A stretch of 64,000 nt of DNA from a virus (lineage: Duplodnaviria; Caudoviricetes), in IMG/VR virus record IMGVR_UViG_3300034062_006701; one strand, given 5' to 3'. Below the pieces are notes generated by a model. That model did no database searches. It was not told the origin of the DNA and saw only the letters and a program-made list of their open reading frames with translations. Position numbers and translations under genes: made by a program. This document shows positions 166 through 4,478 of this stretch, in pieces. Position 1 is the stretch's first letter. Every line of letters starts with the position of its first letter.

Positions 166-220
166 CTCCAGAAATTTCTTTAGGATTCCGGAAGTACTTT
201 GTAATTCCTTGATTTTAAAT

Positions 221-344: not shown

Positions 345-930
345 GTGCTGGGGTTACAACACGATTAGGACTTGAGACCTTTGGCGACTACGGATAGCTA
401 ATCCATTCACCAGTAGCATTACTAAAGAAATTATTGGTATTGAAAGATTTTATTCCGGATTTTGTTCTTTCCTCAACGGGTACCGGCATGGAGCCAGCGC
501 GCCGTCCAGTCTGTGTTTATTAAAGCAAGGGATCAAAGCTGTACGCAGGTTTTTGGCTCCCCCTCTGAAAATACGTCTACTAACTTACCAACAGACAACT
601 CAACGCATCTCTCCCACGGATTATACCTACAACGCGGGAACTTATTTTAATGATTACTGGCCTATCGGAGCTAGGAAGTTTATAGCTCCCGTTCTTTAAG
701 ACTTGTGAAACTCTTAAAACTACTAGGTCGCTACTACCCGCGGCTTCGGACTAGTATTGCTACTACCGAGAACTATACGCAGTAATCAAATTATTATGAC
801 CGGGGTGGTTGTAATCCATCCTAGTGCACCGGTTGATGAAGGCCTTTCAGAGCGAACCTAGTCACGCACACGTACGGTTCAGACCTTAGATGGTCTTCGG
901 CTCTTTCGATCGAGCCTGCGAACGGTCAAA
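345..930 (-). ncRNA. Large ornate ncRNA, GOLLD-like (~590 nt; ends approximate)
   Basis: No credible ORF; many hairpins (GGCTC/GAGCC, GACC/GGTC, GAACC/GGTTC, ACCGG/CCGGT, TAGTA-GCAA-TACTA, TTTAAGA/TCTTAAA, GGAGCTA/TAGCTCC); perfect long-range helix TGATTACTG/CAGTAATCA (780-788 with 651-659); ordered blocks CGTTGAGT, CTCCATGC, TGGATTAGC..GCCAAAG and terminal GTGTTGTAACCCCAGCAC resemble the GOLLD 3' domain as I recall it; directly downstream of a tRNA. Confidence 0.65.
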
Positions 931-1351: not shown

Positions 1352-1800
1352 TGGTGGAGGCGTCGGAGATCTGCCCTCCGAGTCCTTATAATATTTCTCT
1401 TATATTTTCTACACGCTTATGTAAGTTTAGGATTTGATTGACTACAGGCTCCTATGGCTTACCAGCCTATCTTTTTAAGTCTGCCTATATAGATGAAGAG
1501 TTCTATACAACCCCTTGTACTGAGTTTTCTAGGAGTCACAAGTACCTCCATAACCTATTGGTTTAGCTCCCTAAGATCTTTAATAGGATCCAATCTTAGT
1601 TTTTAGGCAGCGAGGAGTGACTCTTCTTCGCAGCTGGCGAGGATATCGTCAGCGTTGTTGAAACAGTACTCAGCTTCTGCTAAGAGCGCATCGATGTTAT
1701 CTTCTGCGTTTAGTTTTTTAGAAGGCTTTTATAGTGGCCAACCTTCCAACCACTGCGTGCAATATAAAACCAGACTATAAGTCGATTCTATGTCGCCCCC
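1352..1800 (-). ncRNA. ssrA: tmRNA (one-piece, 449 nt)
   Basis: 5' GGGGGCGACATAGAATCGAC; 3' CGCCTCC-A-CCA giving G3.U70; pk1 (GTGG/CCAC, GAAGGT/GCCTTC); resume context AAACTAAAC-GCA; tag ends LAA. Confidence 0.93.
1603..1707 (-). other. tmRNA tag reading frame AEDNIDALLAEAEYCFNNADDILASCEEESLLAA*
   Basis: Resume codon GCA at 1707-1705 to TAA at 1605-1603; 34 sense codons. Confidence 0.85.
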
Positions 1801-1807
1801 ATAAATT

Positions 1808-1872
1808 TCAAAGATCATTGAGCGTATATGCTCTTATTTCCTATAATATATATGCTCTAGAGAGTGTGGCAA
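1808..1872 (-). promoter_or_regulatory. Sigma70-type promoter plus boxB-like hairpin and boxA-like element for the tmRNA-tRNA operon
   Basis: TTGCCA (1872-1867); -10 TATATT or TATTAT (16 or 18-nt spacer); hairpin GAGC-ATATAC-GCTC (1833-1820); TGATCTTTGA (1817-1808). Confidence 0.7.
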
Positions 1873-1918: not shown

Positions 1919-3652
1919 ATGCCTGATTATAACCCTAATGTTATTGCAAATCCTCAAGTAGCGGAATACGGAAAGTTTACACAATTGAATGGTTCACGCT
2001 TCCCTGCTGTTTCTGTTACAAGGGTTCAATATCCAGATAAATCACAAGCATTTCCAGGGAATACTAACGCTCTCCCTGTAACAACCATCGACATATATCC
2101 AAAGTTTGGCGTATTAAGCTATATAACTAATACTGATGACTTCGCAGTATCACTGAGTGCAGGTCAGATCAATCTCGATACATCGCTAATTGAATTTCAT
2201 ATTTCAAATATAGATGCGGAGACTACTATCATGGCTAACGCTCTCACGGCGACAGAATGGAACACATTTGATGCAGCTTCTGGTATTAATGAGTTGAATT
2301 TTAATTTTCTCAACGCTGTATCGGCGCTAAGTACAACCATTGTCAATCCTGTGATTATCGGTAATAGAGGTAACGGTAATACAGCTACCGTTTATGCTCC
2401 GACTTCCTCTCTTAACGTCAATGTTACAAATACAATTAACAGCATTACAACACCAGAGCCAACACAACTTGATGCTTTTGGTCGTTTAAGAGTCTCAACA
2501 CCTCTCACACTTTTTGATTCTTCCCACCGTTATAGAGATAATAATCTTTGGTCATCATTAACTGCTGTAGGTGGGACCTATGCATTTAATGCAAATCAGG
2601 GATTGATAGATCTAACAGTAAGTTCGTTATCAGGTTCTTCAGTTATCAGAGAAACAACAAAAGTGTTCTCATACCAACCTGGTAAAAGTTTACTCGTAAT
2701 GAATACGTTTGTAATGGCTTCTTCTGCTACAGATTTAAGACAAAGAGTAGGTTATTTTGGAAGTCAGAATGGAATTTATTTTCAATTAGATGATGGTAAT
2801 ATTGGTCTGGTTAAAAGATCTCTTGTGTCGGGTTCTGTTGTAGATACTATAGTTTTAAGGTCTAGTTGGAACGGAGATAAGTTAGATGGGACAGGAGCCT
2901 CTGGATTAACTCTTGATATAACAAAGGCTCAAATATTTTGGATGGATATTGAATGGCTTGGTGTTGGATCAGTTCGTACAGGTTTTATTATTAACGGACA
3001 GTATATTGTTTGTCATTCCTTTCATCATGCTAATATAATTGATTCTACATACATAACAACAGCATCTCTACCTTTAAGATATGAGATTACAAATAAAGCT
3101 GCTACAGGTGTTTCTAAAACTTTAAAGCAGATATGTTCTTCTGTTGTTTCCGAAGGTGGTTATGAATTAAGAGGTCTTCAACAGGCAGTAGGTACCGCTA
3201 TAACAGCACCAAGAAGTCTTGGAACACCCGCAGGAACCTATCGCCCTGTTGTTTCAATTAGATTAAAAACATCTCCAAATAGATTAGATGCAATAGTAAT
3301 ACTAACAGCTTTATCTGTAATGGGTGTTGATACAGGGATATATAGTTGGCGAGTAATTGCTTCTGGAACAACTGTTGATGGTACTTGGCAGGATGCAGGA
3401 GTTGATTCAGCAGTTGAATATAAATTAGATGGAACAAGCATTACTGGCGGAAGAATCTTAGCACAAGGATATCTTACATCAAACGCACAGGGCGCAACAA
3501 CAGTTGATATTTTAAAGGAAGCTCTTTTTAAATTTCAATTAGAAAGAAATGGACTTACAGGTGTTCCTTATGAACTTACTTTAGCAGTAGCAGCAAGTAC
3601 ACAAAATGAAGTTGTACATGCTTCAATGGATTGGGAAGAGATTAGCAGGTAA
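1919..3652 (+). CDS. Conserved phage protein, probably virion-associated (beta-rich C-terminal domain)
   Basis: 577-aa ORF behind a late promoter; block DAFGRLRVSTPLTLFDSSHRY is familiar from aquatic phages. Confidence 0.6.
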   Translation: MPDYNPNVIANPQVAEYGKFTQLNGSRFPAVSVTRVQYPDKSQAFPGNTNALPVTTIDIYPKFGVLSYITNTDDFAVSLSAGQINLDTSLIEFHISNIDAETTIMANALTATEWNTFDAASGINELNFNFLNAVSALSTTIVNPVIIGNRGNGNTATVYAPTSSLNVNVTNTINSITTPEPTQLDAFGRLRVSTPLTLFDSSHRYRDNNLWSSLTAVGGTYAFNANQGLIDLTVSSLSGSSVIRETTKVFSYQPGKSLLVMNTFVMASSATDLRQRVGYFGSQNGIYFQLDDGNIGLVKRSLVSGSVVDTIVLRSSWNGDKLDGTGASGLTLDITKAQIFWMDIEWLGVGSVRTGFIINGQYIVCHSFHHANIIDSTYITTASLPLRYEITNKAATGVSKTLKQICSSVVSEGGYELRGLQQAVGTAITAPRSLGTPAGTYRPVVSIRLKTSPNRLDAIVILTALSVMGVDTGIYSWRVIASGTTVDGTWQDAGVDSAVEYKLDGTSITGGRILAQGYLTSNAQGATTVDILKEALFKFQLERNGLTGVPYELTLAVAASTQNEVVHASMDWEEISR

Positions 3653-3657
3653 CCGTA

Positions 3658-3822
3658 TTAATACTTACGGGTACTGTGAGTGTGTCGCTTTGGCAGATAC
3701 GCGCTTCTTCCCTCTGAAATAAGCTGGGAGCGAGTCTTGAGAACAGGTGTCGTTGGCTCAACTACCCTAATACCGAACAGGTTATTTGCAAATTTTTTTA
3801 CGGTATTAATGAGTTTAGTCAT
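3658..3822 (-). CDS. Small basic hypothetical protein
   Basis: MTKLINTVKKFANNLF...; fills the gap between convergent genes; start uncertain. Confidence 0.35.
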   Translation of the reverse strand: MTKLINTVKKFANNLFGIRVVEPTTPVLKTRSQLISEGRSAYLPKRHTHSTRKY

Positions 3823-3875
3823 AAGCCTACAAATAATTAGTCTGCATAAGGACAATTTTTTATAAAAAGGAAAAA

Positions 3876-4478
3876 TTAAAGTTTTTTCATACCTTTTATC
3901 TGATAATTAATATTCATTACCACTCTTCTCGGAACTGTTGTCGGTGTGGTACCTGTGTGATAGTGTACCCCTTCGAATATAAAAAGTCTGTTAGCTTTCG
4001 GTGTAACTGCTGTAAGTTGTGTAAGCTGTGTTATCTTTTCTTTATAGAAAGAGTTCGTATCTGGACCGTAATCTGGATCAAACCGCTCATTATATACAAT
4101 TGTATCGCCGTCAGAGTCGTTAAAATAGAATAATGCTGTACGGTGTTCATAGCTTATATCAACATGAGCACCATTTTCATAATTTTTGTCTGTAGCTGTA
4201 TTGAGAATCAATCTAACCCGTAATAATTCTTGAAGATCTTCTCCTGCCTGTATAAGAATATTTTCAGCTGCCTTGAGAAGAGTGTTATTAGGATCGTACA
4301 TTACCTGTTCACGAAACAATACCGTATTACCCCAACCATGTAAGAATATATCATTTACACCTCCATGTGATGGTGGTGTTCTATTAAAGAACCACGGGAA
4401 ATTTCGAGAAAGAACCTCATCACTAAGATTATTAAATTTCTCTTCAGGTAATATATTGTCAATAATAGTTGCAGACAT
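3876..4478 (-). CDS. 2OG-Fe(II) oxygenase superfamily protein
   Basis: HxD (GAHVD), TALFYFNDSDGDT, distal His (HYHTG) and R-x-V-x-N-I-N-Y. Confidence 0.85.
   Translation of the reverse strand: MSATIIDNILPEEKFNNLSDEVLSRNFPWFFNRTPPSHGGVNDIFLHGWGNTVLFREQVMYDPNNTLLKAAENILIQAGEDLQELLRVRLILNTATDKNYENGAHVDISYEHRTALFYFNDSDGDTIVYNERFDPDYGPDTNSFYKEKITQLTQLTAVTPKANRLFIFEGVHYHTGTTPTTVPRRVVMNINYQIKGMKKL

Follow-up and report, generated by a model that had tools for sequence, protein, structure and literature searches.

A candidate modular phage RNA with a double-pseudoknot core, a palindromic loop and a twister-like ribozyme motif

What is encoded by some 590 nucleotides (nt) that lie among the tRNA genes of an uncultivated phage and contain no credible open reading frame (ORF)? 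The region spans positions 345 to 930 of a 64,000-nt stretch of DNA from IMG/VR record IMGVR_UViG_3300034062_006701 (hereafter the window), and is read on the minus strand. A first-pass annotation had taken it for a compact relative of the giant ornate GOLLD RNAs or, as a fallback, for a new class of such RNAs. We suggest, with a probability of roughly 70%, that it belongs to a modular phage RNA chain, whose heart is a previously undescribed, self-associating core of ~205 nt with two pseudoknots and whose 3' end is trimmed by a twister-type ribozyme. The ~590 nt resolve into separable modules, with the predicted twister-type ribozyme making up the 3' quarter; both the modularity and the ribozyme had been missed in the first reading. 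All coordinates given below for modules of this RNA refer to the minus strand of the window, and the related loci are denoted by L and a number.

The core RNA and its palindromic loop

The gene of a neighbouring virion protein (1919-3652) led to 80 related IMG/VR loci, in none of which (0/80) the RNA lies beside that gene, and megablast and blastn searches against deposited phage genomes gave no relative apart from a tRNA match. Searches of the closest relatives' full records by BLAST and nhmmer, with the RNA as query, revealed matches of ~68% identity, which cover the middle third of the region and always lie inside tRNA arrays. With a covariance model (R1) derived from four sequences, the core was detected in 7 out of 49 related records (E from 1e-26 to 1e-63); in the window, the model gives the core 197 bits and shows no second copy. 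Contigs from IMG/VR and JGI metagenomes were then scanned with patterns taken from the two most conserved blocks, and the hits were filtered with R1. The family now comprises 40 matches, 34 of them distinct, on contigs of uncultivated lake phages. About half of the 34 stretches retrieved by the first IMG/VR pattern were chance matches that R1 rejected, and two pattern matches from a genome-contig scan were also found not to be family members. The R1 score is only 14.7 bits for L141 and L145, and L146, L148 and L162 have none. Conservation across the family is limited to the ~205 nt corresponding to 639-435 in the window, while the flanks vary by subgroup. A weak second R1 match is seen in L100 (11666-11818; 25.6 bits), 500 nt downstream of the full copy; it has kept the part corresponding to hairpin P6 and its loop L6, and might be a degenerate duplicate. 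Searches of the literature turned up no account of such a family, and the evidence supports the core as the founder of an RNA family absent from Rfam 15.

The core (435-639) opens with hairpin P1 (639-612; 6-8 base pairs, bp), which is followed immediately by hairpin P2 (611-567; 7-13 bp) in all full-length members when these are folded with the conserved loop held open. The sequences of the P1 helix diverge widely (UCCCGCG/CCGUGGGA, GAUCUGG/CCAGAUC, CUCUCUAG/CUAGAGAG and GAUUCGG/CCGAAUC). The ~20-nt loop of P2 (598-580) is the most conserved block of the family and pairs twice with downstream segments, forming two adjacent pseudoknot helices, PK1 (596-591 with 514-509) and PK2 (590-586 with 439-435, the 3' end of the core). 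Between and beside these lie the P3 domain (566-524), P5 with a variable hairpin (507-472), hairpin P6 (471-442) and a contact of the P1 loop (630-627) with the loop of the middle domain (548-545).

Pairs were counted by script over the 34 homologues, and the 3' partner was slid by one or two columns as a control. Standard pairs account for 204 of 204 in PK1 (GCCUGU/ACAGGC), where three positions have changed on both sides, in different clades, and for 182 of 191 in PK2 (UAGUGU/ACACUA), where one position is A-U in 20 sequences and G-C in 12. The inner P3 helix (136/136, up to four pair types per position) and P6 (189/195) behave likewise, and the loop-loop contact GYAG/CURC is standard in 117 of 132 pairs, with one position U-A in 21 sequences and C-G in 10. 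In the slid controls, the share of standard pairs falls to 0.06-0.73. G-U pairs are frequent and compatible with the minus strand only, and no reading frame is conserved over the core among the 34 members. The signals of PK2, the loop-loop contact and L6 are not a product of fitting, because these elements were absent from the model that made the alignment. We therefore regard the core as almost certainly a real conserved structured RNA. Support for the structure comes from covariation among homologues rather than from folding energy, which over the whole region gains only modestly on shuffled sequences (z = -1.85 for the minus strand and -1.03 for the plus strand).

The A-rich apical loop of P6 (465-448), here called L6, has a recurring layout in which ACAA is followed by two bases, a 6-mer, one base and (C/U)AAAA. 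The 6-mer, UCCGGA at 454-459 in the window, is self-complementary in all 33 members with a readable loop, and occurs in seven types (UCCGGA, CCUAGG, CUCGAG, UCUAGA, UCUAGG, ACCGGU and CCCGGG) that often extend to 8 nt; nine palindromes are distinguished if the longer ones are counted. The three pairs that two such loops could form are standard in 34/34 sequences, the central pair of adjacent bases being C-G in 22 and U-A in 12. In OLE and GOLLD RNAs, switching between palindromes supports symmetric kissing loops between molecules (Kretsch et al. 2025, PMC12286853). Since adjacent bases cannot pair within one chain, yet the central pair is kept, self-association of the core through L6 seems to us to have about an even chance, with covariation as its basis.

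One competing reading, though an unlikely one, is that the core is real but monomeric, being either a ribozyme or the RNA component of a ribonucleoprotein of phage or host, with L6 as a protein site or an intramolecular feature. Compact double-pseudoknot folds of ~200 nt are indeed typical for ribozymes and protein-bound RNAs, and a protein or ligand could be contacted by the loop bases that do not vary (ACAA...CAAAA and the loop of P2). A monomer does not account, however, for switches from C-G to U-A that keep an intrachain-impossible pair in every one of the 34 sequences. Moreover, no second copy of the 6-mer recurs nearby, and no protein gene was noticed to be conserved beside the core, although no systematic search for one was made. 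Sites complementary to L6 near the gene do not recur among members either (13 observed against 22 expected). The palindrome UUCCGGAA (window 186-193), located upstream of the start codon (ATG at 132) of the next gene on the minus strand, in its 5' untranslated region, is complementary to L6; it is probably a chance occurrence, because most relatives have no such second site.

The twister-like module and the maturation of the RNA

Directly 3' of the core, positions 324-429 resemble a type-P1 twister ribozyme. A permissive Rfam scan of the window places the twister model RF03160 at 425-328 (28.3 bits, E = 9e-4), and the same model is matched directly 3' of the core in all six Rfam-scanned loci of relatives (31.6-40 bits; best E = 2.7e-5 in a 61-kb search). 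Position and orientation of the motif are the same in all eight distinct sequences of the subgroup to which the window belongs. When these eight are dissected, they display P1 (429-423 with 330-324; UUCUUUA/UAAAGAA), a junction G-U^AA (U^AA at 421-419), P2 (418-416 with 340-338; UGC/GCA) and a P4 of 3-5 bp, so that the essential stems P1, P2 and P4 are present and the termini lie in P1. The optional stems P3 (411-383 in the window) and P5 (362-345) are present or absent at their canonical places only, and the window has the full five-stem form. P4 covaries (CCGG/CCGG, CACG/CGUG, UCUG/CAGA and GGCCG/CGGUC).

Twister ribozymes are further held together by two pseudoknots, T2 between two bulged bases of loop L4 and a conserved GC in L2, and T1 between four other L4 bases and L1 (PMC5408937). 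The L4 of the subgroup (378-369) is an invariant GUCUCAAGUC, which equals the consensus GUCCCAAGCC at 8 of 10 positions; the two differences are at conserved positions and both are compensated. In T2, L4 GU pairs with AC of L2 instead of GC, and in T1, L4 CUC pairs with GAG of L1 in six of the eight sequences and with GGG, by a U-G wobble, in the window and L159. Both pseudoknots thus keep their pairing via both-sided changes relative to the consensus, and the L2 and L1 variants lie inside the NC and GRG descriptors that have been used in collecting natural twisters. Also retained are the U^AA site and the loop bases UAAA/GA, of which GA belongs to L1. In sum, the module has in common with the known type (RF03160; Roth et al. 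2014; PMC5408937) the stems P1, P2 and P4, optional P3 and P5, the U^A step in the P1-P2 junction and T1/T2, and departs from it in its score (28-40 bits), in two C-to-U changes in L4 compensated in L1 and L2, and in a P2 of 3 bp. The low score is largely explained by the fact that covariance models cannot score pseudoknots. We consider the ribozyme likely to be active, with a predicted cut between U421 and A420. Its setting, at the 3' end of a phage structured RNA, is unusual for a twister.

The surroundings of the family members suggest what such a cut could be for. All tRNAs called by ARAGORN within 2.5 kb of any member are on the strand of the core; at least two lie within this span in 24 of the 34 loci, and none in five short or tRNA-poor loci. 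The ten twister-bearing entries have no tRNA within 1.4 kb downstream and instead run into a stem and U-tract, while most members that have enough flank and no twister are followed by a tRNA within 650 nt. Spacer lengths from ARAGORN alone are overestimates because the program misses tRNAs; closer ones were found by Rfam in the arrays of L081, L082 and L083 (e.g. L081:1719-1789 and L082:1325-1398). This arrangement suggests that tRNA processing may make the 3' end in loci where a tRNA follows, with the ribozyme taking over in those that lack one. A precedent is provided by the theta ribozymes, minimal forms resembling the hepatitis delta virus ribozyme, which set 3' ends of phage tRNAs (Kienbeck et al. 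2024, PMC10879173). These too are small and located in phage RNA clusters, and their cut makes the 3' end of a stable RNA upstream; they differ in ribozyme class and in that the upstream RNA is a tRNA rather than, as here, a novel structured RNA.

Taken together, the interval would be the body of a protein-free RNA operon on the minus strand of an uncultivated freshwater jumbo phage, in the order promoter, leader, tRNA-Met, two domains (928-797 and 788-651), core (639-435), twister (429-324) and terminator (263-221). To judge from the sequence, the chain would be made together with tRNA-Met from one promoter. Processing of the tRNA would free a 5' end near 932 and the twister would cut at U421/A420, leaving, if the modules stay uncut, a mature RNA from ~932 to 421, i.e. 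~512 nt, that ends in a 2',3'-cyclic phosphate. For relatives that sit between tRNAs and lack the twister, both ends would be made by tRNA processing. Covariation suggests that the folded cores could then join via their palindromic loops, giving symmetric dimers or larger assemblies of RNA alone, like OLE, ROOL and GOLLD. As to function, we infer a tRNA-island RNA that is matured by a ribozyme and associates with itself. A more tentative extension, to which we give somewhat less than an even chance, makes the 205-nt core the protomer of a new RNA-only homo-oligomer, in which L6 would give the two-fold contact, GYAG/CURC might act between chains and allow rings or cages, and the RNA's own twister would set the 3' end. 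There is a parallel in ROOL, where one covarying interaction first read as tertiary turned out to be quaternary (PMC12286853). If the extension is true, no other ornate RNA of phage tRNA islands would be as small as the core.

Several points weigh against the proposed chain as a whole. Cleavage, RNA ends, folding and oligomer state are all predictions. The counts for PK1, P6 and part of P3 are favoured because these helices were already in the aligning covariance model, and counts of sequences are not counts of independent events because the members are related. As the family was collected by patterns taken from its own conserved blocks, inference on its breadth and host range is limited, and the same pattern run over 185,579 reference genomes met no family member. 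The palindromic loop could alternatively be a protein site or pair with another RNA, and the accessory domains upstream of the core are found in only 2-5 close relatives and offer little covariation. Because the twister-bearing sequences form one clade, the link between the twister and the missing downstream tRNA represents one event in evolution rather than a statistical association. Finally, the gathering score of RF03160 (67.2 bits) is reached neither in the window nor in the six relatives, P2 has only 3 bp, and P1 is A/U-rich and hardly varies.

The last group of observations, with scores of 28-40 bits well below the threshold, is what would be expected if the twister resemblance were due to chance or to an inactive relic, and the 3' quarter consisted of stabilising stem-loops before the terminator. 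This seems improbable to us, since the motif holds the same place throughout the subgroup's eight sequences, its P4 covaries, the deviations of L4 from the consensus are made good in both pseudoknots, and the U^AA site and UAAA/GA bases are retained. Far less probable still is the idea that the core is a sensor controlling the adjacent twister, in the manner of an allosteric ribozyme or riboswitch: core and twister are adjacent and on the same strand in the clade of the window, but about two thirds of the family consist of a core without twister or downstream ORF, placed between tRNAs, and an A/U-rich linker of 15 nt separates the last helix of the core from P1 of the twister.

Relation to GOLLD and other known RNAs

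The GOLLD model (RF02032) comprises 416 positions and has a gathering score of 150 bits. At gathering scores, Rfam 15 reports only tRNAs and a transfer-messenger RNA (tmRNA) in the 64-kb window, and a scan of 150-1100 at E <= 10 gave no match to GOLLD, ROOL, OLE, raiA, HEARO or any other large RNA. The comparison with RF02032 and the ROOL and OLE models, which the first-pass annotation had itself proposed as a check, has thereby turned out negative. On the complete records of five phages that possess a homologous RNA, RF02032 was silent at the locus and matched only elsewhere, with 7.2 bits; ROOL (RF03087), OLE, raiA, HEARO and other large Rfam RNAs were likewise absent in relatives at E <= 1. 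The RNA chain is thus very probably not a member of GOLLD, as RF02032 has no match in the window or at the locus in the records of the five relatives. Nor does the suggested minimal GOLLD subtype hold, since the part conserved throughout the present family is ~205 nt and not the 3' domain of ~400 nt. That suggestion had been drawn from four ordered blocks likened to the GOLLD 3' domain. The blocks all exist, and each belongs to a core hairpin or to the twister-like motif: CGTTGAGT is the 3' end of the 5' strand of P2 together with the first bases of its loop, CTCCATGC forms the loop on the variable hairpin of the core, and the other two, TGGATTAGC..GCCAAAG and GTGTTGTAACCCCAGCAC, make up P3 and P5 in the twister-like motif.

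A GOLLD RNA that has been shortened or has diverged, with the core as a reduced GOLLD 3' domain, would still explain the shared niche (a tRNA island of lake-water phages, downstream of tRNA-Met like GOLLD env-38) and why variable 5' modules precede a conserved 3' part. In view of the silent model, the ~205-nt conserved part and the place of the four blocks, however, we regard it as highly improbable. The fallback reading as a new ornate RNA class is supported, as the RNA represents a covarying pseudoknotted family that is absent from Rfam 15 and, like GOLLD and ROOL, resides in phage tRNA islands. Readings of the core as RNase P RNA, group I intron, Y RNA, signal recognition particle RNA or riboswitch were tried and rejected, as there was no covariance-model match and the order of helices is different. 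In particular, the Y RNA model YrlA (RF02553), known from phage tRNA arrays, has no match at the core, and the ends of the core do not pair together, as those of a Y RNA do in the stem that bears the Ro60 site.

The likeness to GOLLD (RF02032; Weinberg et al. 2009; PMC12286853) extends to several traits: both RNAs are phage-encoded and often near tRNA islands, with one GOLLD example downstream of tRNA-Met, both were first seen in lake or marine metagenomes, and both combine a variable 5' and a conserved 3' part with covarying palindromes, which form symmetric kissing loops in GOLLD and are proposed to do so here. They differ in the length of the conserved part (~400 nt in GOLLD, ~205 nt here), in total length (often >800 nt versus a predicted ~512 nt) and in their helices, and GOLLD is an RNA-only nanocage of 14 subunits while assembly of the present core is a prediction. 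ROOL (RF03087) shares with the core its occurrence in phages and prophages near tRNA islands, multiple pseudoknots and the lack of a known protein partner (PMC12286853), but is ~580 nt long, has an unrelated secondary structure and is not matched at E <= 10. Loop L9.3 of OLE is a symmetric intermolecular kissing loop supported by palindrome switches (PMC12286853), as is proposed for L6. OLE is otherwise different, being a bacterial RNA of ~600 nt that is associated with membranes and has protein partners, and shows no relation to the core in sequence or structure.

To our knowledge, no complex RNAs of phage tRNA islands other than GOLLD and ROOL have so far been shown to form assemblies of RNA alone. 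A third family in this niche, unrelated to them and much smaller, would point to a general phage strategy, which the shared kissing-loop covariation signature strengthens. A length of ~205 nt brings the core within reach of chemical probing, mutational scanning, native gels and cryo-electron microscopy. We also know of almost no biology that has been assigned to twisters. If our reading is true, the attached twister would be a natural 3'-end maturase of a stable RNA, and the idea derived from theta ribozymes, that small ribozymes of phages replace processing enzymes, would extend to a second ribozyme class. Exchangeable 5' domains between identical flanks, together with an optional 3' module, further suggest that RNA domains are shuffled in a cassette-like manner.

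Accessory domains and the surrounding locus

Two accessory domains lie upstream of the core. Domain A (797-928) has multiple hairpins, is closed by UGACCG/CGGUCA and occurs in the window, L131, L136 and L132. In five relatives (e.g. L133:1038-1190) the same slot is filled by an unrelated domain B, closed by UGACUAG/CUAGUCA. Within the subgroup of the window, A and B share the flanks AAUUUGAC ... GUCAUA, which follow promoter and leader, and the occupancy of the slot looks as if the two had been exchanged as cassettes among close relatives. The second domain (651-788) is an insert with a sole homologue, in L136, where one hairpin is swapped. It holds two features that the first-pass annotation had described correctly, namely a perfect 9-bp long-range helix of UGAUUACUG (788-780) with CAGUAAUCA (659-651), which closes the multi-branch domain, and a GCAA tetraloop (760-757) that caps UAGUA/UACUA.

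In subgroups without the twister, a second structured module of ~125 nt was observed after the core (L104:2095-2214; also in L106, L096, L105, L154, L137, L151, L100 and L140). Its stems ACCCG/CGGGU and AUACG/CGUAU covary, and it further has a GCCUCU loop and a stem GCGUG/CACGC. It also exists as a free-standing module, and lies upstream of a promoter in L159. Compared with Rfam as a possible member of another ribozyme class, it gave only a non-significant resemblance to the abiF motif (13.6 bits, E = 8.7).

Phage genes identified in the window encode a phrog_1645 virion protein, a baseplate wedge protein, tail-fibre proteins, a 5'-3' exonuclease and a DnaB-like helicase, and near-identical DNA recurs in lake-water metagenomes of several studies (2016, 2020 and 2024). 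The RNA genes follow one another on the minus strand in the order tmRNA (1800-1352), tRNA-Thr, tRNA-Trp, tRNA-Met (1005-933), ~660 nt without a credible ORF and the terminator. The earlier statement that no credible ORF exists is borne out, as ORFs in 275-932 reach 62 amino acids at most, and the longest open stretch over the core shifts strand and frame across the 34 members. A non-functional spacer, a decayed gene or a short coding region, for which only the lack of annotation speaks, can be dismissed in the face of 34 homologues with compensatory changes, the missing conserved frame and a G+C content of the RNA region above that of its flanks.

The promoter said to be shared with tRNA-Met and the downstream terminator were likewise recovered. 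A sigma-70-like promoter, TTGCCA-17-TATATT, is present upstream of tRNA-Met (1071-1043; score 10 of 12) and is kept in relatives; co-transcription of tRNA-Met and the RNA chain from it fits the sequence. It is followed by a conserved leader (1006-1036), detected by nhmmer in L131, L132, L133, L138, L159 and duplicates of these. The leader includes UGAUCUUUGAUAG (1028-1016), an element that is present in every relative having the same promoter, and which we take to resemble the boxA antitermination element of rrn operons. The tRNA-Met (CAU; 933-1005; 60.9 bits) is an insertion between leader and RNA chain found in this phage only; in the relatives, the leader joins AAUUUGAC directly, with no tRNA-Met between. 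This tRNA carries a C1:C72 mismatch atop the acceptor stem, which is initiator-like, and is without three consecutive G-C pairs in the anticodon stem. The predicted intrinsic terminator (263-221) consists of a 12-bp stem followed by U7, and the relatives that bear the twister likewise run into a stem and U-tract. A simple scanner had missed it, apparently because the loop of ~15 nt exceeds the scanner's limit of 8 nt.

Contigs from RNA libraries lend weak support to expression. Metatranscriptome contigs from two studies cover 432-479 and 642-800 (in a relative's version), 642-773 and 844-1016, and the tmRNA and tRNAs of the relative are covered as well; RNA libraries can contain DNA, and the contigs reveal neither RNA ends nor strand. 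Cover of the coding flanks (1-400 and 1800-2400) is zero and was not counted as evidence, and a very deep cover of 513-581 in one run is probably DNA.

The tmRNA gene at the head of the array (1352-1800, minus strand; 85.7 bits) was not called by ARAGORN. Its promoter, TTGCCA-16-TATATT at 1845-1872 (minus strand), has hexamers identical to those before the unit of tRNA-Met and the RNA chain. A partial group I intron match, cut off by the end of the record, is found at L132:3907-4013. In L133, a group I intron (3301-3917, minus strand), which exceeds the cut-off with 77.7 bits, lies directly next to the 3' part of the phage tmRNA gene (45.5 bits), and this tmRNA looks intron-interrupted.

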